Of a stretch of DNA of 64,000 nt, positions 3,001 through 50,430 are shown piece by piece. The stretch's first letter is position 1, and every line of letters starts with the position of its first letter. The position numbers were made by a program, and so were the translations under genes. Source of the stretch: Psammoneis japonica (lineage: Eukaryota); contig QPGO01000050.1 of NCBI GenBank assembly GCA_008632985.1, forward strand, positions 310,001-374,000, read 5' to 3'. The notes under the pieces were generated by a model. The model saw only the letters and a program-made list of their open reading frames with translations, was not told the DNA's origin and did no database searches.

Positions 3001-5340
3001 CATGACGCAACTTGAAGCTTGCCTGTTTGGATGCATCTGGTGTGGGAGATGAGCTTGAAGAGGTTGAAGGTGAGCCAAGACATTGCATGGACAACAGAAG
3101 CTGACTCATTCCCGCTTTTTCAATTTTCAGGCCCTCATGAAACCCATGTTGCAAGGACGTTTGCTCGACAATGTGAAGATCTTGAACGACATCCAGGAGA
3201 AGAATGACGCTGATCGTTGCGAGAAGGCTTGGTCTCGCAATGTCATCAACATTGATGAAGAAGCCAAAGAATGAAATTGACACATGAGGTTCGACACAGC
3301 AGGCAAAGCGCGGATGCACACAAGTCTTCAATTGTGCTTGTCTGACTTTTGTTTGACTCACTCAACCGTCTCCAAAACTCGTGGACATTGCCAGTTTATG
3401 GAACCGAAATGATTCAGAGCGCCATTGCGAAGTGGTCGATCCAGAAGATTAAAAGACGGTGATTGCTCGTCACACCAAGATAAATGTCTCCTGAGGACAT
3501 GAAACTCTTGCGCACAAAAGACGACAGTGATGACTGCCATGTTCCACACCACTTTGCAGCTGTGGATGCAGAAAACGAGTCAACCGTGTGGTCATTGGGA
3601 GGTGCACTGTCAACACCTGGAGCCATCGTGGATGTTCAGGGCATGGAATGCAAGCAGCGGGCATTGCTCATGCTGCATTCTCACTGCAACAGGTCCAGAA
3701 CGAACCCCGTCAGGACAGGTGAAACCTGCAAAAAAGGAGTTTCAATGGCCTGTGCGCACAGCACGCACATGTTCTTGTTTGATTGTGTTCAGTGATCACT
3801 GTCACTTTTCACCAAGACTTTTCATATCCCGTTGGTTTTCTCAACCGCTCAGGCAACTGTGCAAGGCACACCTGAGCTTGGGGCATGGCCAAGATCCCGC
3901 CCCCAGGCATTCCATGCCGGTGTGTCAGGACAATCGCGAGCAAAACCAGTTCTCTCATTGCCAAGCTGCATTTCTTCCTGTTGTGAATCGAAGCCACCTG
4001 GACCAGGCAAAGGCAAGCCGGAGCACAGCCACAAGTCACTCATCTCTCATGCAGAGCAATGAGTCCTGGTGCACTGCCGAAACCAGGTGCCGCAGCACAA
4101 CAGCCGCAGCCAAGAAACTTCGACAGCAGGCACTTGCAGAATCATCTTAAAGCTCTTGATCAATGACATCGTTGTGATTTTTCCTGCGCTTGACATGTCA
4201 ACAGGTTGCGCACCTTTCGACAACAGCTTTGATTCTCTCCGCTTCACGAAAGACTGCTGAAGACAAGACGTCTGCTCACAAAAGCAACAGATCGTCGAAA
4301 ACAGCAGCGACGGCATCACAGCACCTTGCGCGAGAGCTACGACCATCAACGTGCGGAATGAATGGCGCACAAATGAAGATTGCTGTGCTGTGCTCTCAGT
4401 CTTTCCACTTCTCCATTGCAAAGGTTCAAAGTTTGTTTCGGATGTTTGAAACACGCCAATGTCAAAAGTTGACAGAAATCGGTCACGCAGGATGACATTG
4501 CCTCAAGAGTGCAATCAAAAGATGGCGCTCAAGCTTTTTCCCATTTTCGGGGTGGATGACCACCCCAAAAAAAAGAAAAAGGGGGGACGTGCTGCGGAGA
4601 CAGCAAGAGAATCTTGCGAGTCAACCGCGTGCCAAATCAACACTCCCTGCGAGTGAAGACTTGCCGCACCACGTCACTGATGCAATGGAACCCCAAACCC
4701 CACGTTCCGTCAACGGCATGATCTGCTTGGCGAGCTTTTGCTGCTTCGCAGATGAACACTGCTGTCTGTTTCAACAGCCGTGACCTGATGGGTCAAGCGA
4801 GCAGGCAACTTCCCATGGTCAAAGACACAGGAGTGACATGGACTCCAGGCCAGAGACACGCACTCGATTTGCCCCGACCTCCGGACTTAACTGCTGGCAA
4901 CACCTGCTCCACCGATTTCAACAGCACACTTGTGCTGAAGCAACTTTGACAAAAAAAAGAGACAAACCGCCAGCACTGGAGTCAAGCTCGAGGTGAATTG
5001 GGGAAAAAGAAGGATCAGATCACACCCAGCGGATGGTTCTGCGGGCAGTTGTTCGTCACGCTTCTCGAATGATGAAGCAAAAGAGAAGTGCTTGATCCTT
5101 CTCCACGGATGGAACACCAGCCTGAAACAGACGGTGTCGATGCTCCACAGGTGGGGTTCTTTGCACTTCTCTTCACCCATGTGCCATCATCGTTCCCGCA
5201 CCAATCACTGATGATTCCCTTGCGGCATTTGTGCGGAGAGGAACAGATTTTTGAAAACGGGCGGTCGTTTGAAAATGGAGGGAAATGATGTGGCTGGGAA
5301 ACCAACGGGTGTCTTTCACTGTCACATTTTGTGTGATTTG
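1..5340. mobile_element. TpA-depleted, hypermutated repeat/TE-derived block 1 (family not identified)
   Basis: I count 5 TA dinucleotides in bases 1-1020. TG/CA are abundant and CpG is partly retained. ORFs here are almost Tyr-free and Cys/His-rich. TE origin is inferred from the same composition in the LTR-containing block. Confidence 0.6.
259..715 (+). repeat. Diverged ~285-bp direct duplication inside a hypermutated ORF
   Basis: 'gctgcgctgatgacagccaccaaagcactccattggagcacaaggca...aaccaacgtttgc..ggcctcaaggga' at ~315-415 recurs at ~602-702. Confidence 0.8.
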
Positions 5341-29425: not shown

Positions 29426-31297
29426 GAGAGGGGCACACCCGCTGTTCTGTGTTTCCCAGCTGATGTGGGCAGGTTCTTGAGGTTGTCCCATGCCAACAGA
29501 CCTGGGCAATCTCTTTCAGACAAAAAAGTTGATGAGAGTGCTGGGTGGCCACATGGGCCATCCAGGATTTTGAGTGCGTGCTGTTTTGCTCTCATGAGGA
29601 CGAGACGACACAGGTGCAAGTCCGCGCACTTTCCCAAGTCCTCCCAAGGCGCAGCAGTGATGAACCCTGCAACCCTGCAAAACACCTCAACTTCAACCTT
29701 CAAAAAGCTCCATGGGCAGTGCATGGCATGGAACAAAACAGCTGAGCTGTGCACAAAAGTGCAGAGCAAGCAGCGTGTGTGGACATTTGCCCTGCCCAGC
29801 ACTGCCTCACCTCGTGAGAGAAGAAGGCCCAAAACTGGTGACAAACAATGCCAGGAGAGCAACCAAGCAAAACAAAACCAGTGTTGCTTCTTTGCCAAGC
29901 TTGCTGATGTGTGCAAGAACAAGTGCACCCATTTGCCAGTGTGTCACCTGCTGACTGAGACTCTGTGCTGGGCAACAAGAAGCTGCCCCCAAGAACTTGG
30001 CCAAGAAATTCTTCCAATGGCCATCATCTGGACAGCTGCCACATTTGGGAAGAAGAACCACAAGTCAAGCTCAGTGCAAACTTTGGCAGCTTTTCTCCCT
30101 CCCACAGTGTGTGCCCCCACACACCGGGTGCATCAAAGGCAGCAAGTTGATGCCACCAATGACTTTGGCAACCCAGCGGTCACAGCTGTCTGCAGCGCTG
30201 ACTGTGACACAGAGGACACAGATCTCTTGCTCTTGTTTTCCATGTGGGTGGTGATGTCTGTGCATGTGCAAGCTTGTTGAGCCACTGTGGAACACTTGAG
30301 TCAACAAGTCTGGGGCATCATTTTGGCCAAGAAACAAAGAGCCAGAAAAAGTCTCCAGCACAGAGCACTTTGCCTTTTGTTTGAGCCATTGACCGCAGCT
30401 TCAAAGCAGGAGGCAAGGGTTGAGCACTTTCCCACTTTCTTTGGTTGGTGTGCTCCTGCTTGATTCATTTGTGTTTTGTGGAGTGAGGGCAGCATCATCA
30501 AAAGTGAGCATCTTGCCTTGCCGCCACCTGACACGCAATGTTGGTGGTGGTTGCATGGTCCTCAAAGCACACAAGCTTGTTGCAAAAGACACCATCAAAA
30601 TGAAAGCTGTCCCCTTGTCATCTCCTCACTCTCAAAGCTGCCCCTCTTGCTGCTCTTGTCTGTGGGCATGCCACATTTCTGTGCAAGCACCCACTGGCAG
30701 CCCCTCCTGCACGCGTGTTTCTGTGTGTGCTTTTGCACTGAATTTCAGACGGCATTTTGCTGGGGGCCCCCGACACCCTTTTGGCCCTTTCTGCCATTGG
30801 TGCACCCCCTCATTTCACCATGATGTGCCACAATTTTCAGTCAAAAACAACTGGCATCGACGCCTTGTGGTGTTGCATGCTTGTTGTCTTGTTTGGCAAT
30901 TTTTTGCAGATTCAGTGCAGTTTTTACACAGAATCCAGTGCAAATTCTGCAAGCTTCTTCAGAAATGTCCAATGACAATCATGACATCTTACAATTTCTT
31001 TTGCTCCTTCTGGACACTGTCAAGTTCTTCACCTCATGTGGTGACAGCACTGTCCCTTTGGCAGCGGGCAGACATGCTGTTCGCGAATCATGCACGCATC
31101 ATCTTCTTCGCGTGTCATTCTGGATTCTGGAATTTGACATTGTGGCATGCACAATGATGCGGCTTCCGGAGCCGCTCGTCGCTCGTCCTTTTATCAACGC
31201 ACATGGGTTGCATCTCTAGAGAGAATCAAAGGCAGCACAATGCCCTCTCTTCACATTTTGTCTTCATGAAGCACAAACTGCGACAAGTGAGCACTTG

Positions 31298-32994
31298 ACT
31301 CAGAACACTGTACACTGCCCAACGAGTGCGGGAGGTTCTCAACAACCCAAGAGGCAAAGAAATTGCCACTCGGCCAATTGTTGAGTCCCTTCTCCGCACA
31401 CACATTTGGGCATGTGTTGTGCACAGCATCATCACACAGCATTCATCCAACTCTCCCTCTCGTCGCAGGATGGGGTGTCGCCTTGGGGCGCATCCGCACG
31501 GCGGACTTACGAATTTGACCATGCACTCCCTCTGATGGGCAGGATGGGTGGCGCCATGTGGCGCATCCGGCCAAGGGAGGAGTGGGTTCGAAGCCCAACC
31601 GCCCACCCCGGATGGGGTTGGAAAGGGGCAGGCCGAGAAAGAAAAGGAGGCTTGGATTTGAGGCCGACTCGAGCCAGCGACCTCAGGAAGCGTAAAGACT
31701 CACAACCACTCAGAATGCTGTACACTGCCCAACGAGTGCGGGAGGTTCTCAACAACCCAAGAGGCAAAGAAATTGCCACTCGGCCAATTGTTGAGTCCCT
31801 TCTCCGCACACACATTTAGGCATGTGTTGTGCACAGCATCATCACACAGCATTTGTCCAACTCTCCCTCTCGTCGCAGGATGGGGTGTCGCCTTGGGGCG
31901 CATCCGCACGGCGGACTTGCGAATTTGACCATGCACTCCCTCTGATGGGCAGGATGGGCAGCGCCATGTGGCGCATCCGGCCAAGGGAGGAGTGGGTTCG
32001 AAGCCCAACCGCCCACCCCGGATGGGGTTGGAAAGGGGCAGGCCGAGAAAGAAAAGGAGGCTTGGATTTGAGGCCGACTCGAGCCAGCGACCTCAGGAAG
32101 TGTAAAGACTCACAACCACTCAGAACACTGCACACTGCCCAACGAGTGCGGGAGGTTCTCAACAACCCAAGAGGCAAAGAAATTGCCACTCGGCTGATTG
32201 TTGAGTCCCTTCTCCGCACACACATTTGGGCATGTGTTGTGCACAGCATCATCACACAGCATTTGTCCAACTCTCCCTCTCGTCGCAGGATGGGGCATTG
32301 CCTTGGGGCGCATCCACACGGCGGACTTACGAATTTGACCATGCACTCCCTCTGATGGGCAGGATGGGTAGCGCCATGTGGCGCATCCGGCCAAGGGAGG
32401 AGTGGGTTCGAAGCCCAACCGCCCACCCCGGATGGGGTTGGAAAGGGGCAGGCCGAGAAAGAAAAGGAGGCTTGGATTTGAGGCCGACGACTCGAACCAG
32501 CGACCTCAGGAAGCGTAAAGACTCATAACCACTCAGAATGCTGCACACTGCCCAACGAGTGCGGGAGGTTCTCAACAACCCAAGAGGCAAAGAAATTGCC
32601 ACTCGGCCAATTGTTGAGTCCCTTCTCCGCACACACATTTAGGCATGTGTTGTGCACAGCATCATCACACAGCATTTATCCAACTCTCCCTCTCGTCGCA
32701 GGATGGGTTGTCGCCATGTGGCGCATCCGCACGGCGGACTTACGAAATTTTGACCATGCACTCCCTCTGATGGGCAGGCGGATGGGTCAGCGCCATGTGG
32801 CGCATCCGGCCAATGCCAAGGGAGGAGTGGGTTCGAAGCACTCAGAATGCTGCACACTGCCTGACGAGCACGGGAGGTTCTCAACAACCCAAGAGGCAAA
32901 GAAATTACCACTCGGCTAATTGTTGAGTCCCTTCTCCGCACACACATTCAGGCATGTGTTGTGCACAGCATCATCACACAGCATTTGTCCAACT
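31298..32994. repeat. Tandem array of a 410-bp unit (starts 31298, 31708, 32118, 32531, partial 32840)
   Basis: Near-identical units beginning actcagaa(ca/tg)ctg(ta/ca)cactgccc; the 4th unit is internally deleted (309 bp). Confidence 0.97.
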
Positions 32995-34696
32995 GCTTGC
33001 GATCGCGGGAGTTTGATGCTGTTTTCTTCTTGCAGTTCTTTGCGCTGTACGCTCTGCTGTGCTGGCATTTTCAGTCGCCCATTGAAATGCAAGGGGAACA
33101 AACAAAGGTTTCCACCAAACCCACTGCGAATGGAACAGCTTCCGCCTCATCCAGCACTTTGTTTCAATGTCGTCAAGCAAAATGATTCTTGGCCAGTGCA
33201 TCAACAGGACTTGGTCGCATGGGAGAGGTCCCTTGAAGCCTTTGATGGGACAAAATGGTGTCTTCTGCCACGACCTTGTCCCTTGGAAACAAGTGGACGA
33301 TTGAATCTTCCTCTGCAAAACACGTCACATTTGCCTTTCAGACACCAAAAAAATGTTGCGGCGGCCAATGTCTCCAACAACGTGAATTGTCTCGCACCTG
33401 CAACTCGTGGTGAATGTCCACGGCGGAACAATTTTGTCATGACCGACATGACAACAAGTCGACATGATGCGCATTACACACCGAGGCGGTGCCGAGCCAG
33501 CCACACACTGCAACACTCACTTGATTTGCCGACCCAAACCAACCTTTCAATGTCGGGTTTGACGCGATTGTGTGCACAGCAACACGAAGCATCGTCGGTC
33601 TGGCATCGAACAAGTCAAGAGGCACCGCCACAATGTGTGGCAGAGAGTTTGCCACAATGGCTCCGAAGCTCTGTCAGAACGTCCCAGCCACCGCCATTGC
33701 CAAACAAAGACAGCGAACCGGCATTGTCACCCGGAATGTCGGCGCCACCACCACGCCACCAGACACTTGTTGCGACCGCCAGCCAACAATGATTGTTGCC
33801 ATCCAATGGAAAACATTTCAACCATGTGATACAAGTCAGACAATGCCATCATTCCAACGTGAAAGAGATGCGAAAATTCAAGCCTTCGGACAGCTAAACT
33901 TGGTACAGCGTTGAAAGAAGTCTCTGAGAGAGAAAGAGTAATCTTGTGACGCGTCCGCGGTCTTCTCGCGCACTCGCAGCAACAGGGAGTCTGAGAATGA
34001 AGTGCACTAAATCAACTACAATCGAATGTAGACATAGCCGATTTTGCTAGAACAAGAACGCTGACGATTGGGATTCAGACATGGAGAGCTCGTTAGAAAG
34101 TGAGAAGGAATAAATGTACTCTGACTAAGACAATAGTTTTTCCGTACCAAAGAAGCTCGACGCAAGAAAGAGAGCTCCTGTGATCAAGGCATCCGTTCCG
34201 GCCAAAACAAGCTGACCTTGCGATGTCGAAGCAACCTACCAATGCCGATCCAGGACCTGCGCAGTCTGCAAATGATGGGATCTCCTGCGTCAACTAATTT
34301 GAGCAAGAAGAGTCCTTCAAAAGTGACTATCGAAGGTAGCGACTTCTCGCTCTGACGGAGACTTCCCCAAATTTTGCAGCGAAAAATGTGCGCCGTCATC
34401 GGTTCCCCCCGCGAGAAAGAAAGCCGCAGCAAAGATGGCGCCAGGAACCTTTGATGGAAGGCGGTTGTGTATCGCTCGAGTGACGATAGCAACGATTCTG
34501 GCCCTTCGGCAAGTCACTCGGATTCGTTGCCTGTCTCCTAATTAAATACCAGCATCTCGTGTTAGGGCCGGGCGCGGTCGACGGTGATTTATGCCTACAG
34601 TGTGGACATTGATAGCGTTGCCTCTGATTTTGAACGCATGGGATGACAACAATTAGTTCAGGAACACAAAGACCGACGACACGCACGAGAGATACT

Positions 34697-35495
34697 CAGC
34701 ATTTATATTCAGCATGTCGCTTGTAGCTACTTTGCCGCTCAAATCATTGTTGACTGGTTAGGGAGGGCAGTGTAGCCTTGGATGATTGAGCGTGGAACGC
34801 ATTCATTTGACGTTGACTTGAAGACATTACTTCTGTAGACAAGCGCGTTGGCCCATTTGCGCGACGCATTCATGAGATCGCCCTCAGAAACTTGATTCTT
34901 TTCTTTATTTTACGGAAAGCTGTAGTATCTCTCCAACAGATTGTACGAGATTTTGGTAATTTACCCTTTAAACAGGAGGCCCGGTTCTATTTTCGCCTGT
35001 TTTATCATGTACAGTACAGTAACCGCGACTGCTTCAGATTTTGCCACTACCTCGCAGATAACCTATCATTGCGATGTCTTCCGCCTATGTCTTTCACTAC
35101 GTTAGAGGCATGAGGGAACACGCTCCAGCGACATTCAGCATTTACGTTCAGCATGTCGCTGGCTACTATGCCACCCAAGTCATTGTTGACTGGTCAGGAA
35201 GGGCAATGTAGGCTTGAATAATTGGGCGTGAATAATCGCATCCAATAGACGTTGTTGACAACCGCGTTGACCCATTTGCGCGGCGTATTCATGGGATCGC
35301 CCACAGAAACTTGATTCTTTTGTTAATTTTACGGAAAGATCTAGTAGCTCTCCAACAGAGTGCAAGACATTTTGGTAGTTTACCCTTTCAACAGGAGGGC
35401 CGGTTCTATCATCCATTCGCATGTATTATCATGTACTGTACAGTAACCGCGACTGCTTCAGATTGAGCCACTACCTCGTAGATAACCTATTATTG
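34697..35495. repeat. Old diverged ~440-bp tandem duplication
   Basis: cagcattta..ttcagcatgtcgct..tcattgttgactggt..gatcgccc.cagaaacttgattcttt..tacagtaaccgcgactgcttcagatt..ccactacctcg.agataaccta at ~34697-35068 and ~35136-35490. Confidence 0.85.
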
Positions 35496-35575
35496 CAATC
35501 TCGGTCCTTCAGATAAGATTGAAAGAGGATACCCTCGAGTAGCTACCCGCGAAGGTCTCCCAATAACAAAGACGA

Positions 35576-39493: not shown

Positions 39494-41344
39494 GGATTAG
39501 TACCGTATCAAATTCCAATCTCTTCACGTTAATGTCTCTCTGATTGAGGCAGCAGCATAGACTCATGATGAAGAGTGGAGCAGCAGCAGCAGGCCATGGC
39601 AGTCGCATTCAAAGTCAGATGCGTGTGAAAAATTTCAAAAATCCGGAGCTCGGCGGCAGTTTTTTTTTACGGCTACCGTAAAGCGTACGTAGGAATTAGT
39701 AACAATTTTGACAGTACCGAGTTCCCACGAATGTTCTACATACGGAATCATGGCAACAATTCAACACAAATACACAAAAGTGATAGTGTTGAGAAATTTA
39801 GCAACGGTCACGACCCACCAAAATCTCTCGGAAAGCGCTCGATTTTCGCTCACAACTCGTCGTCTCGCACGATGTGTTTGTTGTTCGCCAAGCAACGAAT
39901 GCCACGATCGCCGAGGATGGCTCACCCTTCCCCTGGAATAGAAAGCTTGCTCTTGTTTGGCGTTCCACAGCTCGTTTTGCTTGCTGACGTGTTGTCGCTA
40001 GGTGGCGTAGGTGTTGCCAGTTACGTCCGGAGGTCGGGGCAAATCGAATGCGTGTCTCGAGCCTTGAGTCCATGTTACTCCTTTCCATCAGCTGTCCCGA
40101 ATTACCAACCAGTAAAGCCCCGTCGACTGACCATTCCACTCGGCCAGCTGATGTGATGACCAACCCTTCGACGGAGCCCTCGGCATTTCCCTCTGCAGCA
40201 CCACGTGCAGCTTACGTGCTATCAAAAGCACCATCAGCAGAACCAAGCAATATTATTTGGAAGCACTTCGTGCTGTGACGATGAACGTGAACGATGCATT
40301 GTAAGATGTACAAGGAAAGAAAAGAGGATCAAACCAAAGATGCACTTCGATGGGATGCACCATTGCTAGGAGCCACTGGACCGAACCATTTCTTTCCTTA
40401 TCATTTTGCGACATCTGTTCTCGTAAGTTGTTTTCCGGCTGCACTTTTCCCACTCCATCCCCGTCACCTGAAGATATATACAAGCTTGAGCTCCATCTTC
40501 TGATGGCACTTTTGAGGCAATTTGATCCTACGCAACCGTTTTAATAGCCACTTTTGACATTGGCGTGTTTCAATTTTTTGAAACATGCTTTGAACCTTTA
40601 CGAAAGAGGTAGACATACTAAAAGTACAGCATAGCAATCTTTATTGGCGTGTTATTCATTCCGTACGTACGTCAATGGACTACGATGACGGCCGTAGCGC
40701 TTGTGATGTCATTGCATACTTTGATGTAATGGTTTCTGTTTTCGTACCACACTGCTCTTTCTCTTTCTGGTGGGGTCCATGCTGGGGTATTCGTTACAGT
40801 ATTCCCCAAGGCTTGTCATCGATGTGTGCTAGACTATTTTGGCTCTGATCGCCTGCATATTTTATGGATTCGTCGCGGTTACTTGTTGTTAGGGAGTTTC
40901 AAGTGTTCTGCCGAAATAGCGGAGCACTAGAGAGTAGAAGAACGCCGACGACAAGGCCTCTGGGGGTTTATCCGAGCCATCTCAATTCTAAATTAGCTAG
41001 CTACAATGCCTCTAGAGAGAAAAGAAAGATTCGAATTTTGTGAGTTTTTTATTTCTCTGACGGTACCAAGCTCCGTTTATCCTTTTTCTGAGGTGAATAA
41101 TCACCTGGGTCTCTCCAAACGGAGTTCTCGAGCTTGTCTTTGAAGTTGGCATTGAGCGTGTCAATCGATGCACACGTCAAGGTCGAGTAGAGGCTGTGAG
41201 GCGAATCGAATTGACGGCTATGTTGAATATATTTGGCTTGTTGCGTCGCAATCTTTCCTCCCGCTTTTCTTAATTCCTCAGCAAAAGCTCTTCTGAACCA
41301 CTCTTTCGGCTACTCATAGAGTTGCTACGAGAGCGGCAGCCGGC

Positions 41345-43719: not shown

Positions 43720-46700
43720 CGCTGCCTGTGCACGCTAATCACGCGCAAGGCGCCAGCCTTCAGCTCTCCACCCGGAAAACCCCCCATCTTCCGAGCAAAC
43801 CCTCAGCACCACACCCTGCTTTCAACGCACGAGGAGTTTGGTTCTGCCACTTGTTTTCTCCAAAAACTTATGACAAGCAAAGTCATTTGTCACAGATTTG
43901 GCACAAATTCTTCATGTCAGCACAAAGTGCACAGACCGTGGTCAGCCAAGAACTCGTCGCTCAGATCACACCCCGGGAAAAGAAAGTGGCCGGAGCAAAT
44001 TCCTTGCATGTCAAAAGGGGTCAAGCAATGGGGGTTTGTTCAGATGACAGGGTTTGAGTGGGAGATGTGATCATTGAGACATGTCCCTCTGCCAAATTGT
44101 TTGGTGGCTGTGCCCCAGAAAGTTGGCCATGGCACTGCTGCTGCTCGCAATGCAGGGCTTTGATGCCCATTCTCAACATGAAGAGCCCATCACATTTGGC
44201 TTGATCTGGCACTCACACATGGACAAACTGGTGCCATCTTCCTGCTGAGGATGTTTCCTGGCACTTGTCTAAGAGGATGGGATGAGCGAGCCTTGCAGGC
44301 AAAGATGGGTTGCCCTCGCTGTCCTGATGCTGCTCACTCACTGCACTGACAAAGCTGCACACTTCAAAGCGCAGCTTTTGCCATTTGTCTGCCAGCCATG
44401 CTCTGCCATCATCACATGCAGGGCTGCCACAAATGGTGTGAGGCAATGATGTTGCTCAAGGCACGTGGATTGAAGTGTTTGTGTTTTTTCTTTTTTTCAC
44501 AGTCTGGCAGAAGAACCTGTTTTGTTGGTGCTTTGGACAAGCATGACTTGGCATGTTGGCATCAGCCACTCTTTCCCACCAGCCACAAACTGAGATGCCT
44601 CCATGGTCACCTTCTTCTCTTGACTTCTGTGAGCACTTGCAGCTGCACTCAGCAAAACATGCCATTGGGTTGGCTTTTGCTGGCAAATCTTTTTGTTGTG
44701 TTGCAAAATGACTGGCCTGCCATTCTGTTTGTGCCAAATAGAATGTTCTTGGGGAGATGAGCTTGTGCCAATGTCCACATCACACAATGCTTGGAAAACC
44801 CCTGCTCTGACACAACCACTGATTTTGTGTCTTCAGTTGTGAGCCTCTCCAAGATGCCCATGGATTTTTTGTCCACATCTGTCTTGAGTTTAATCTGGAC
44901 CAGCTGCAGCTGGGAATGTGGTCTGTGGTGATTTGTCTTTTGTCCAGGAGCCAAGATTGTCTGAAGTGTTAGCCCACCCCTCAGATTCTGTGCAAGTTGT
45001 CAACAAGCACACCCAACAAGCACACCCAACAAGCAGATGAGCAACCCCTGCTTTTTGCTGACTCTGCTGAAATCTGAGATTGGCCACTTTTGACCTCAAA
45101 TCCCTGGGAAATGATTGGTGCATGGCACCAGAGATGTGCACATCACATCATCAGATAACACAGCACTCTTGCCAACATGCCAAAGTTGCCAGAAATGGCT
45201 CACCTGGGCACTGTGGGTCTCTCAGATGAGAAGTTGCAGGAGATCCTTGGAGTGTTGTGTCAGCAAGTGGGGTCTGATGCCTGGCAAGAAATCTTGGTGC
45301 ATTTTTTGACCAGAGGCAGATTCTTTTTCATGAGCCCCATCTTGGTCATCTGGTGTGCAGCCATTTTTCACAGTGATTGAGCAGCGCTGTTTCAACCTCC
45401 TCTTTGTCTGGGTTTTGTTTGTCAGTGCCTGTCAGAACATTTTTGGGGCCAGAGGCAGTTTGTCAGGATAGACAAACAATGCTGCAGTGCAAGACACACT
45501 GATGATTGTGGACAATGTGGTGAATTTGCACTCACAACTTGGGTTGTGTTGTGGCTCTGGTTTGGTTCTCACTTTTTGGCTTCTGCACCTGGTTTGCATG
45601 GCAATGGTGGTCAATGGCAATGGGAACATGTTTGCAAACCACAAGGGGAGCTCAGGGTTGGTGAGACCATGTGAACATGCCAGTGGATGAGCCACAAAAC
45701 TCCAACAGCTGCAGAAGCCAAAAGGTCACTGCACAAGACACTGGATGACCTGTCATCAAACCAAGTTCTCACCTCAACAAGTCACAGATTTCAGTCCCAA
45801 GAAGTGCAAACATGAAGTCAAGACTCAATGGTTGGCATGGGAGAAATTTTCATTCCCATGAATGAAGATTCCCCAGCAACCTGACAGTGCCACAGCAGTT
45901 GACACAGGGCAGGCTTGGGAAATTTAAAGACTGAAGCCCAACTCCAAGGCTGCAATGCACAACACAGATGGTCACAGCATTGTCAACAATGTTCAACATC
46001 AACAGTTGACTTTGGTGCACAAAATTGAATTCACCAAGTGCAACATTTGCAGCCAAATGATGACAAAGCCTGGTTCCATCTCTGTCCACTGGGGGTCTGA
46101 CAATTTCATGCACAAATGCATGAAAGACTCTGACTCACAGGACCAAGTGTGACAGTTGGCAAGCCAAAATGCTCCAATGTTGGTCTGGAAAATGTGGGCA
46201 AGGACACAGCTGAGCACAGGAGCACACAGGATTTAAAAAAGTGGGTGCACAACACCGTTGCCAAGTTGGGGTGAAAGGCAGATGTTTGCATGGAAGCCAC
46301 AAAGAAGATTGGCCGCGAGCATGTTGGGACAATGTTTGGGCAGGAGATGCAGGTGCTGGTGTGTCTCTGAGGCAGGAGAGCATGCCAAGAAAAGAGCTGG
46401 AGCATCCATCAGGAGACACTGCACATCAGGAAGGACAAAGAAATCTGGGACAAGCAATGCAGTCAATCATGATGTGAAACAGAGTGAAATCTGCAAGATG
46501 CAGAAGGCAAGGCACTGAGCACAATTGTGGAACACAATGTGCAAAGGCCACTCATCACAAGATGATCATCAAAGGAGTGATGGAGTTCATGAGAGTCATG
46601 AAGGAGTGGAGCATGGTGGTGTTGTTGGAAATTCTCAAGTTGATCTTGTTTGATGAAAATGAGAAGATGTGCTTGCCAGAGGTGCACAAAGCATCTGTTG

Positions 46701-49700
46701 TCATCTGCACATGCACATTTGCACACTCATCATGCACACAAATGAAAAATGATGAGATGGTTGTTTGTCACCAGCCAGCAAGTTGATTGTGTGCATCAGG
46801 CAACAACATGCAATTCATGCACCACCTCTGGAACTCACATGTTCAGGTGGTCAGAGCTTGGAAACAGCTGGCACTCATTTGTCAAGACAAAGGAGAGGTG
46901 CACTTCAAGATTCTTGTTGTCACAACTGGCTGATGACACCTTCTGGAACAAGGAAAAAGACAAATTGTCAGCAGCAATGCTGATGGAAGGCAAAAAGGAA
47001 TGTCGGCAATGGGAGATGACAATTGCCCCAATTTGGCTGAGGAGGCACTGCAGGGATTGGACACGTGTGAAGCCAACAAGAAGCCCAAGGGCACAAGCTT
47101 TGTGCCAAATGAGAAAAAGCAGCTCAAGCACTGGGAATGCAATGAGGTTGGGCATGTGAAAATGGATTGCCCTGACATGATCATTTGTCAGCGGTGCAGA
47201 GTTGGATGATGTGGGCCAGCCCACAGCAATCAGCAGAGCAGTCAAAGTGGTGTTGGATGACATGGCTCCCAAGTGTCATCCTCCCATGCTTGATGCACAT
47301 GAGGCCAATCAATTGACAGCTCATGTGAAGGAGTGTGTTGAAACATTGGGGTTGGAGGCAGTTTTTGCAGGACAGACAGACAATTTTGCAGTGTAAGATG
47401 CACCAACAATTTTGGACAATGTGGTGAATTTGCACTCACAACTTGGGTTGGGTTGTGGGTCTGGTGTTCACTTTTTAGCTTCTGCACCCAGTTGACACCG
47501 GCAACAGTGGTTGGCAGCAATGGGAGCATGTTTGCAAACCACACGGTGAGTTTGTGGGGTGGTGAGACCAAAGCAACACATGCCAGTCGGCAAGCCACGA
47601 ACTCCAACAGTGCCATCTTCTTGCTGTTTCTCCAACAGCTCAGTTGCAATGAGGTGTGTTGAGGAGTCTCCAACATCTGGTTGATCATTTGCCATCTTCT
47701 GCAGTTTTTGTGACCAAGTCATTTTGCTGCACATTTGGCAAGGTCCTCCAGCCAAGCTGAGCAAGAGCAGCAGCCAGCGTTGCTCTGGTCTCTCAGAGGT
47801 GTCTTCAATGCTGAGTGCAGATGGCCCCAGCTTCCAGCTTGCTCCTGCATGGTTCTTGGCATGCTGCAGCCATGAGTTGTCTAGAGTGCAGCATGCCAAC
47901 TTTTTGTTGGAACCTTGTTCAAGCCCATCATTCCCAACACCCATGAGATTGTTGCCTTTGGTCTTTGCTCAGTGTCTGGCTCATGCTGTTGCCGTGCAAG
48001 GAGTGCTTGTTGTGAGTGTTGCATGCTGCAGAAATGCTGAGGTTGGAAAGTTCCTTTCAGCTGCTGAAACAAAGAGCTTGGGGGCGGTGCTGTTTGTGTT
48101 CAGCCATTCTCCAAAACTGACCAGTTTGGTCTGTGCAAAGTGCCCAATGTGTTTGTTCTGGTCTGCTCTGAAAACACTTTTGTTCTTGTGATCCTCATCT
48201 TTTCTGGAAATCTGTTGACCTTCTGGAGCACAGCTTGGAGAATTGAGCAAGGTTTGTCAATGGCTTGGGGGGGGGGGGGTGTAAACAGCTTGGGGGGGCA
48301 CAGTCTTTGTGAAATTTGGCATTGCTGCTGTGGACCAGCAAGATGACCCCTGTTCTTTGTCTTCCTCAGTGGTTGCCTCTCTGCTCTGAGAGACCATGCA
48401 GTTGCCTGCTGCAGCTCCTCTCTGCATGGGCCACTTGCCCTCACCCCTGCCAAGTCCTGCAGCTGAACAGCTTGAGCAGACTCAACGCTGTTTTGTGGAT
48501 GGGGGTTGCAACTCTCCACTCTCCTCCCTGCACAACATGGCAACAGTGCTGGAAACAATCTGCCTTTCGCTGAGGTCTCATTGCCATCATTTGTTCTGTG
48601 CCCTGGATGGGCACATTGTTTGTCAAATGTCATGGCATCATTGTTGGCTGTTTTGTTGTTGGGGGGAAGTTGGCTTGACATTCTCATGATCTTGCATCTC
48701 CTTGTTGCTGAGACAAAGGGCTGAAACTTGCTGTCTTTGGAAGGTTCTTCAGAGCCACTGGAGCTCCAAGAGGTGGGCAAGTTGGAAGAGGCACACTGGA
48801 AGAGCTGCAAGAGAAGCTTGGAGCAGATTGTGTGGAGCAAGACTTTTTGCCACATGCTGCTTTCTCCTGCATTGCCTGCCCTGGCCACAGCCTTGACATT
48901 CTTTTCTTCTTCTTGGGACTGTTTTCTTTCATTTTTTTGTTTTCCAGAAAATCATGGTGTCAGCCAGAGTGTTCACAACAATGAGTTGTTCTGTGAGCCA
49001 ATCATTGGATGACTTGTTGTGTTGTCCTGAGACACATCATGGTCACCCTGCCACCCCCATTGTCAAGAACCTCAAACACAATGTTTTTGGTTGCCACTCG
49101 CCTTGTTTGGCCAGAAGAGAAATTGCTGAGTGAGCTGACATTCATTGTCATCAGGCTGGGCATGGGTGGCCACCATCTTCTTTGCCTTGGCAGCATTCTT
49201 GGGATGAGTTTTGAGCTTGTCAACAATGCCCACTGCGTCGCTGCTGCTGTTTTGATGTTTTTCATTCATGTCTCAGCAGTCTGCACTGTTTTTTTGTTTT
49301 CAAGACCTTTTGAACTCCTTGCCATTGTGCTGCTTTGGATCAGATGTTTTTTGTTTGTTTTTTCTGAAGAGAGCATCAATCTTGCCTTGGGTGTCTGTCT
49401 TCTTGTGAGTGCCCTCCTGTGTGTTTGGCATTGCAGAGGGAGGCTCTGGGTGCTTTTCATGTCTGTCATGCGGCAAAAATTGGTGCTGGTGCTGTGTGAC
49501 AGTGTGGGGCTGCCAGCACCTCTTTCACACACTGATGCATCACATGCATGATGCTGGAAAAGTTTTTTGCTGATCCTCCACCCCACAGCATTTCTTTTTC
49601 ATCAGTTTTGTGTTGGACATGTCACCATTTGGTGTCACACCGTGCTCTCTTGTCCTCTGTTTGAGCTTTTCTGCTGTGCAGCACCACTTGTGACTGGAAG

Positions 49701-49900
49701 AGGTCTTCAAGTGCACTCTTGCTCGTCATTCTTGCCAGGAGCAAAGCCCTTGTTGGCTGCTTTCTTGTTCGACAGCCATTTTCAATTTGATCTTTCCTCA
49801 CATGTCTGGTTTCCTTGTCTTTCCTCATCTGGCTGAGAGGAACCCTGTGATCGAAAACCCTCCCCGACACTGCACGCACAGCAGACACGTGTCACACAAT
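43720..49900. mobile_element. TpA- and CpG-depleted hypermutated block 3 (unidentified host element carrying a nested LTR element)
   Basis: About 2 TA and about 5 CG counted in 47700-48700; Tyr-free ORFs. Confidence 0.75.
45430..47609 (+). mobile_element. Gag-only copia (CoDi-like) LTR retroelement: LTRs 45430-45707 and 47336-47609, TSD GTGCC
   Basis: TGT...AACA LTR pair. GTGCC at 45425-45429 and 47610-47614. Purine tract gaaggagtg before the 3' LTR. Gag remnant MGDDNCP..GTSFV with degenerate zinc knuckle WECNEVGHVKMDCP (~47130-47175). Confidence 0.9.
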
Positions 49901-50430
49901 GGATCATTGAGTCATGACCGGGTGAGTCATGATGATCGTCAGTCCCGAATCATCAGAATTCGCGCAAGCTGGCGTATGTACGTCCGGTCTTCTGGCGGCG
50001 TCAATAATTACTTCTTTGTCAGAACAACGTCACACCATAAATAAAAAATTCAAAATGATGCATTCTCGTCGAATCAGAATGGCCGACAGCCATCAATCTG
50101 GTTCAGTATACTGAAGCTCCTGTAGAAATCTACGTAGCAATGCTCCAACGCGACTGCGCTCGCTCCAACGACGTCGCTCCTTCCGCCACCGATCATCTGC
50201 GTGCATGCATTTTCGACGTTGGCGACATCGACACATATGATACACCGCATGCACACATCACAAACGAAGTGAATTCTGATTGTCTGACTCTGATTTCAAA
50301 CGGAAGATACACTTCTTGACTCAACCTTTCGAGTCAACAAGCTGTTTTGAAGTCAGGAAAGCAACTACGTTTGCTCACAATTCCCACACCTTCCGTTTCA
50401 ACAACAACGATTCAAGCATACCGTTTCACC

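Follow-up and report, generated by a model that had tools for sequence, protein, structure and literature searches.

The window analysed here is a stretch of 64,000 nucleotides from the diatom Psammoneis japonica (GenBank assembly GCA_008632985.1, contig QPGO01000050.1, positions 310,001 to 374,000), and the element under study is an old, short long terminal repeat (LTR) retrotransposon at positions 45430..47609, whose two LTRs differ at many places where one carries TG and the other CA. In a young Copia family from the same genome, TA dinucleotides resolved independently after insertion were demonstrated to yield such TG/CA swaps. In the focal pair, TA is the largest class of origin but probably does not account for most of the swaps, and the pair is too old and saturated for a clean test of TA resolution. 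We consider it very likely that the focal divergence arose after insertion through two processes, a judgement that leaves the enzyme aside. According to this account, the two LTRs would have been mutated independently within one silenced domain. The first process, documented in the young family, is a fast, domain-limited change of A:T to G:C at TpA on both strands, with a preference for a pyrimidine after the A; each TA ends as TG or CA and thereafter offers no target. The second, recognized by its pattern and presumably due to methylation, is a slower decay of CpG to TpG or CpA, as expected where diatom transposons carry DNMT5-type CG methylation. Near saturation, former TA and former CG would both give TG/CA swaps, and a few more would come from TG or CA sites by way of a short-lived TA or CG. 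The domain would be established inside the element and would then spread, sometimes into the flanking DNA.

Both repeats of the focal element begin with TG and end with CA and the target-site duplication GTGCC is found on both outer sides (45425..45429 and 47610..47614, + strand), which identifies them as the two LTRs of a single insertion of 2,180 bp. The 5′ LTR (45430..45707, +) has 278 bp with one TA and no CG, and the 3′ LTR (47336..47609, +) 274 bp with two TA and four CG. The internal region (45708..47335, +) is common to many sister copies and is broken in all six frames; the element is probably non-autonomous. Its internal domain evidence is confined to a degenerate and weak gag-like zinc knuckle at 47129..47170 (+; zf-CCHC, E 0.062, below the cut-off), which does not fix the superfamily as Copia or Gypsy. 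A purine-rich tract at 47327..47335 (+), resembling a polypurine tract by its position, precedes the 3′ LTR.

The alignment of the focal LTRs comprised 269 ungapped columns with 50 substitutions (38 transitions and 12 transversions), 24 of which were supplied by 12 TG/CA swaps, that at 45653 being alignment-dependent, as a multiple alignment gives 11 swaps instead of 12. Three steps between TA and TG or CA and one between CG and TG were also present. When the same number of transitions was placed at random, the mean number of swaps was 1.35 and the maximum 6 in 20,000 trials. A sequence-only reading of the window had proposed that the LTRs differ largely by such swaps; the LTR strings that it quoted are all present at their positions and the swaps are far above chance, but they make up only about half of the substitutions.

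An assembly or base-calling artefact is hardly conceivable as the source of these differences. Contigs from short-read run X1 showed no other letters with respect to the assembly over 45075-45511 and 45517-46078 and, among the pieces listed for the 3′ LTR, no substitution and a single 1-base deletion at 47555. As these contigs agree with the assembly, a long-read miscall is unlikely, and the pattern is moreover graded by age and context-specific. What speaks for an artefact is that all this comes from a single run, possibly made from the assembly's own sample, with no library type on record. A half-depth short-read contig was also found that connects window positions 45257 and 47677 and bears CA/TG swaps; it probably derives from a paralogous copy of the older repeat in which the focal element is embedded.

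The young Copia family was located by a reverse-transcriptase search, its copies being about 99% alike with normal TA. Twenty-five copies were fetched, 23 had two LTRs and 16 had matching target sites; the pair totals thus exclude the two copies without two LTRs and the 7 of 23 with mismatched target sites. With the copy having identical LTRs as reference, 90 of the 175 differences in the 16 pairs were located at TA and 22 at CG. Ten were swaps, seven at TA, three at TG or CA and none at CG. Between the bodies of eight copies 496 swaps were counted (28 non-independent copy pairs, with three little-changed real copies as references): 367 of them fall where all three references carry TA and 100 where some of the three do, 29 correspond to TG, CA or TT, and none to CG. 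In addition, one copy of a second family had lost 71 of 84 TA (38 to TG, 32 to CA and one to CG) and 15 of 95 CG. Independent TA resolution is therefore well supported as a source of swaps at the level of the genome and, since the LTRs of one element differ at TA, so is their divergence after insertion. The copies on contigs C118, C244, C444, C332, C27 and C334 share flanking 5-mers, which may be due to recombination among the copies, to allelic contigs or to chimeric assembly.

These pairs also bear on RNA editing or reverse-transcription error before insertion, to which we assign a negligible probability. ADAR-type enzymes prefer U before A, according to the accessible part of a recent preprint (bioRxiv 10.64898/2026.01.13.699255). 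However, such an origin predicts identical LTRs, and the 16 pairs had 89 TA losses in 5′ LTRs against 35 in 3′ LTRs (a count over 11 copies gave 66 against 6). It also predicts A to G changes on the sense strand only, and no strand bias was detected: sense exceeded antisense in 7 of 16 contexts, and palindromic contexts gave 183 TG and 169 CA. RNA editing is thus refuted for the LTR differences by their inequality together with the strand symmetry.

The mutation spectrum was taken from hot zones, defined as the first 2.5 kb of the four most-hit young copies, and from a cold zone of eight copies. In hot zones, A to G changes per strand-site affected 333 of 768 TpA, compared with 38 of 3,721 for all other A sites (ApA 16/1,041, CpA 16/1,320 and GpA 6/1,360), and transversions at TpA were three. 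CpG to CpA changes amounted to 33 of 1,170 sites and CpA to TpA changes to 3 of 1,336. The cold zone gave 8/1,468 at TpA and 4/1,448 at CpG, so that TpA loss was about 80-fold and CpG transitions about 10-fold higher in hot zones, where CpG decay was about 15-fold slower than TpA loss. The base 3′ of the TA was preferred in the order C (.38), T (.32), G (.18) and A (.14). No sign of selection was detected, as 273 of 1,791 synonymous and 554 of 3,429 non-synonymous sites were changed.

Loss of TA comes first and loss of CG follows with age. At a background divergence of 0.1–0.6%, the 15 young copies considered had lost 5–73% of their TA and 1–7% of their CG; at 3.5% divergence the losses were 232/256 TA and 101/356 CG, and at 6% they were 227/250 and 187/345, respectively. 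The contexts of the TA surviving in the focal family were anticorrelated with the loss rates of the young family (rho −0.78, p 0.0075, 10 contexts, computed on 17 hand-picked TA-poor loci out of 28), and this relates the focal element to the process seen in the young family.

With respect to the mutagen, we give about even odds to a TadA/ADAT2-type adenine deaminase that would act on DNA and convert A to inosine, read as G. Error-prone synthesis of the polymerase-eta type, with A to G changes after A or T during repair in methylated domains, would also hit both strands, and it would fit the concurrent rise of CpG transitions in the same zones and the position of ApA as the second-commonest site of A change. 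Polymerase eta, however, produces many ApA changes and transversions, and here TpA was 28-fold above ApA and transversions were 3 compared with 333 transitions, so that we regard this explanation as unlikely. Somewhat less likely still is a modified base at TpA that decays or mispairs, either an oxidised thymine such as 5-hydroxymethyluracil (5hmU) or a modified adenine. In dinoflagellates 5hmU silences transposons, with a TA and TC preference reported in the available part of the source (PMC11572971); here T to C at TpC was the rarest A:T transition (6/1,360), and no Tet_JBP match was obtained in the genome in a search run without a positive control.

The deaminase is our best guess because the spectrum is nearly free of transversions, T before A is dominant, TAC is favoured and the natural TadA site is UAC. 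In the accessible parts of the reports on TadA and ADAT2 (PMC12027372, PMC12296453), the strong U or T before A, this UAC site and the A to G outcome are all shared with the diatom process; the natural enzymes act on tRNA, and an activity on diatom DNA is hypothetical. The genome encodes an ADAT2-like (L130) and a TadA-like (L127) gene among nine deaminase matches. Two points weigh against the deaminase: the engineered TadA8.20 edits UAG best in one reporter, as far as these sources go, and the TAG rate is low here; and the presence of ADAT2 and TadA, which have housekeeping functions on tRNA, says little. A further frame (L129:313-1785, −) joins a guanine-deaminase-like domain to a 2OG-Fe(II) dioxygenase (2OG, 2-oxoglutarate) resembling fungal thymine dioxygenase, and it probably serves nucleobase salvage.

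As regards the origin of the swaps in the focal pair, the sequence-only reading had counted on a known identical ancestor. The two LTRs were identical at insertion, but their ancestral state is not known. The focal family has many copies, with 71–83% identity. Two DNA searches, in which 40 of 148 and 40 of 218 candidates were scored, gave 50 sister LTRs, among which no intact member was found (maximum four TA), without this showing its absence from the genome. As a substitute for the intact ancestor, the two-base state was tallied at each swap column across the sister LTRs. In near-fixed columns the background of CG was 24 of 1,469, and since CG exceeds it at 45590 (10/48), 45672 (10/42) and 45503 (5/48), these three swaps look CG-derived. 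The columns 45450, 45495, 45605, 45612 and 45688, about five of the 12, vary between TG and CA with CG absent in the 31–48 sister LTRs available for each, and they look TA-derived on this residual evidence. Two others are nearly fixed as TG, 45433 (TG 43, CA 1, TA 1) and 45500 (TG 44, CA 3, CG 2), so that a transient TA or CG was probably the intermediate in these swaps. The columns 45615 and 45653 fall outside these classes. In a two-class mixture fit, the CG class took up 19% of the 42 columns that vary.

Against a leading part for TA it must be considered that this 19% is a floor, as fully decayed CG sites would pass as TA-type, and that without an intact family member the origins of the sites rest on residual states. 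The proposal that the swaps fit independent resolution of TA stands for the process, which is real in this genome, but probably not for the majority of the focal swaps. Among the examples given for it, 45590 (cacc-gtt) and 45503 are two of those that look CG-derived, and 45500 is TG, not TA, in 44 of 49 sister LTRs; its reservation that some swaps could come from CG was borne out by the three of 12 columns with CG excess.

It is nevertheless very unlikely that CpG methylation decay produced all the focal swaps with TA uninvolved. In its favour, the element lost CG as well as TA, CG excess was seen at those three columns, and diatom transposons are CG-methylated by DNMT5a in Phaeodactylum, as stated in the available part of PMC9998398. 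However, five swap columns lack CG in the sister LTRs while marked CG columns keep it at 10–24%, decay of CG should make TA from CA or TG and not remove it, and none of the 496 body swaps of the young family was at CG. DNMT5-type decay as described in that source would account for the CG loss and for at least 3 of the 12 swaps, and its slower pace in hot zones and inability to remove TA set it apart from the TpA process. The co-located CpG decay and, by analogy, the Phaeodactylum work suggest that TpA loss is linked to CG methylation.

The TA still present in one LTR had been taken as surviving ancestral TA. Two of them look like survivors, as 23 of 49 sister LTRs also have TA at 47476 and 9 of 32 have it at 47394. 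That at 45469 is probably newly arisen, because TA is absent from this column in the family (CA 35, TG 3, TA 0, CG 1) and the context is one normally erased quickly. Four other full-length sister LTR pairs had 13–18 swaps each and two partial pairs 2 and 8 (counted regardless of target sites), so the pattern is family-wide.

Within the young elements, TA loss peaked about 0.7–2.6 kb into most copies, even with a TA-retaining upstream flank, and the last 1.3 kb was almost spared in 13 of 15. Against a universal 5′-internal peak stand two of the 15, in which the 3′ end was hit, and a copy from a different family (L077) that retains TA across its first 1.5 kb. Copy number was rejected as its cause, as gag and pol counts are similar (35 and 39 candidates). 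Spread from an adjacent TA-free block as the sole trigger was also rejected for this family: the copies on C103, C5 and C153 have 23–36 TA per 750 bp upstream, yet they lost 105–158 of about 262 TA inside, and the copy on C16 adjoins a TA-free block, yet only 8 of its 280 TA changed. In the upstream flank of one young copy (L081, contig C44), the number of TA per 250 bp drops from 10–18 to 1–2 as the 5′ LTR is approached, with CG intact; the leakage thus reaches about 1 kb beyond the element.

The focal element is enclosed in a TA-erased domain (43737..49974, no strand assigned) with 13 TA in 6.2 kb, whose CG-poor core (about 44.0–49.6 kb) is a few hundred bases narrower on each side; the element is itself depleted in CG besides TA. 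The observed/expected ratio (o/e) of TpA was 0.01–0.1 in TA-erased blocks and about 0.45–0.75 in gene regions, where that of CpG is near 1. For a gene in the neighbourhood, the best named match among 41 hits bears a name beginning with 'Gram', probably Grammatophora, and another is Epithemia, in agreement with a diatom host. Other repeats of the window were also inspected. A tandem 410-bp array at 31294-32990 is TA-poor (3–5 per unit) with CG retained (20–23), and its neighbouring young units differ at 13–14 sites, including three TG/CA swaps each; it is a second record of TA resolution in the window. In an inverted dispersed pair (4349-4551 and 40467-40668), TA is kept in the copy within gene-like DNA, and the copy in a TA-free block has TG or CA at several of its partner's TA sites. 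Finally, a tandem duplicate at 34679-35520 retains 16 shared TA and 17 shared CG, so duplication alone is not the trigger.

The diatom process is not repeat-induced point mutation (RIP). It resembles fungal RIP in the dense transitions on repeats, on both strands, with flank leakage and distorted LTR ages. Nevertheless, RIP makes TpA via C:G to T:A, whereas the process described here erases it and hardly creates it; RIP hits both duplicates by homology pairing, whereas here often one of two identical LTRs was affected; and the TA-retaining duplicate at 34.7-35.5 kb indicates that homology alone is not the targeting signal.

The process works like the TpA hypermutation recently described in Bigelowiella natans, extending that kind of mutation to another lineage. 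In the accessible part of that preprint (bioRxiv 10.64898/2026.01.13.699255), changes of TpA to TpG or CpA were measured in integrated viral DNA, with a footprint also in transposon-like genes and a rate per generation raised about 1000-fold in some lines only; the main text as available does not contain the words diatom, LTR, CpG or stramenopile. As far as this part permits comparison, both systems display nearly only A:T to G:C transitions at TpA, on both strands of chromosomal DNA (here LTR pairs differ at TA without strand bias), confined to local domains of foreign or mobile DNA and uneven among copies or lines, and both have an ADAT2 candidate with a putative role. Unlike Bigelowiella, which belongs to the Rhizaria, the host here is a stramenopile and the targets are multicopy LTR retrotransposons; loss is near saturation, CpG decay is co-located and LTR pairs prove change of DNA after insertion. 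To the per-generation rate corresponds here only the range of TA loss among near-identical copies (5–73%), which is not a rate. A literature search, mainly outside subscription journals, yielded no report of diatom TpA hypermutation, nor any paper that treats LTR dating under this kind of mutation. In the best 80 of 218 metagenome relatives TA was not erased (TpA o/e at least 0.36 overall and at least 0.24 in any 800-bp window), a weak null since the tyrosine-containing search patterns are biased towards intact copies.

The prediction that LTR divergence overestimates age in this genome was supported. The young target-matched pairs had a p-distance of 0.0315, which fell to 0.0140 after masking TA and CG sites (in one pair, from 0.027 to 0.000), and the Kimura two-parameter distance of the focal pair, 0.22–0.24, fell to 0.154–0.158 with the variable columns of the family masked. 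The inflation was thus about 2.25-fold in young copies and about 1.5-fold in the focal pair. Because this error is greatest while an element is young and reaches a plateau with saturation, it not only inflates the LTR ages of such genomes but also disturbs their order. Likewise, TA-containing stop codons are removed, so long open frames in repeats are no proof of an intact element. In several Copia families (L032-L038, L051-L060) TA is scarce, CG is normal and the open frames are long (listed up to 2,279 codons), a state that reflects either erasure of stop codons or transposition of lineages that had become poor in TA beforehand.

We tentatively suggest, as a possibility with the odds against it, that a genome defence based on adenine editing is common to diatoms and chlorarachniophytes. 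In it, a TadA/ADAT2-type deaminase would be recruited inside a newly silenced retrotransposon, within a CG-methylated domain, and would spread from there on both strands, so that RIP would have its mirror image in the SAR (stramenopiles, alveolates and Rhizaria) supergroup. In such a defence nearly every TpA would be rewritten, with less than 1% change in the remainder of the element. If the present account of the TpA process is correct, the GC-directed and TpA-specific mutator that has been reported in one alga would also disable retrotransposons in a diatom. Since gene knock-out tools exist for diatoms, the enzyme can be sought directly, and an adenine deaminase acting naturally on DNA would be of interest for both genome defence and base editing.

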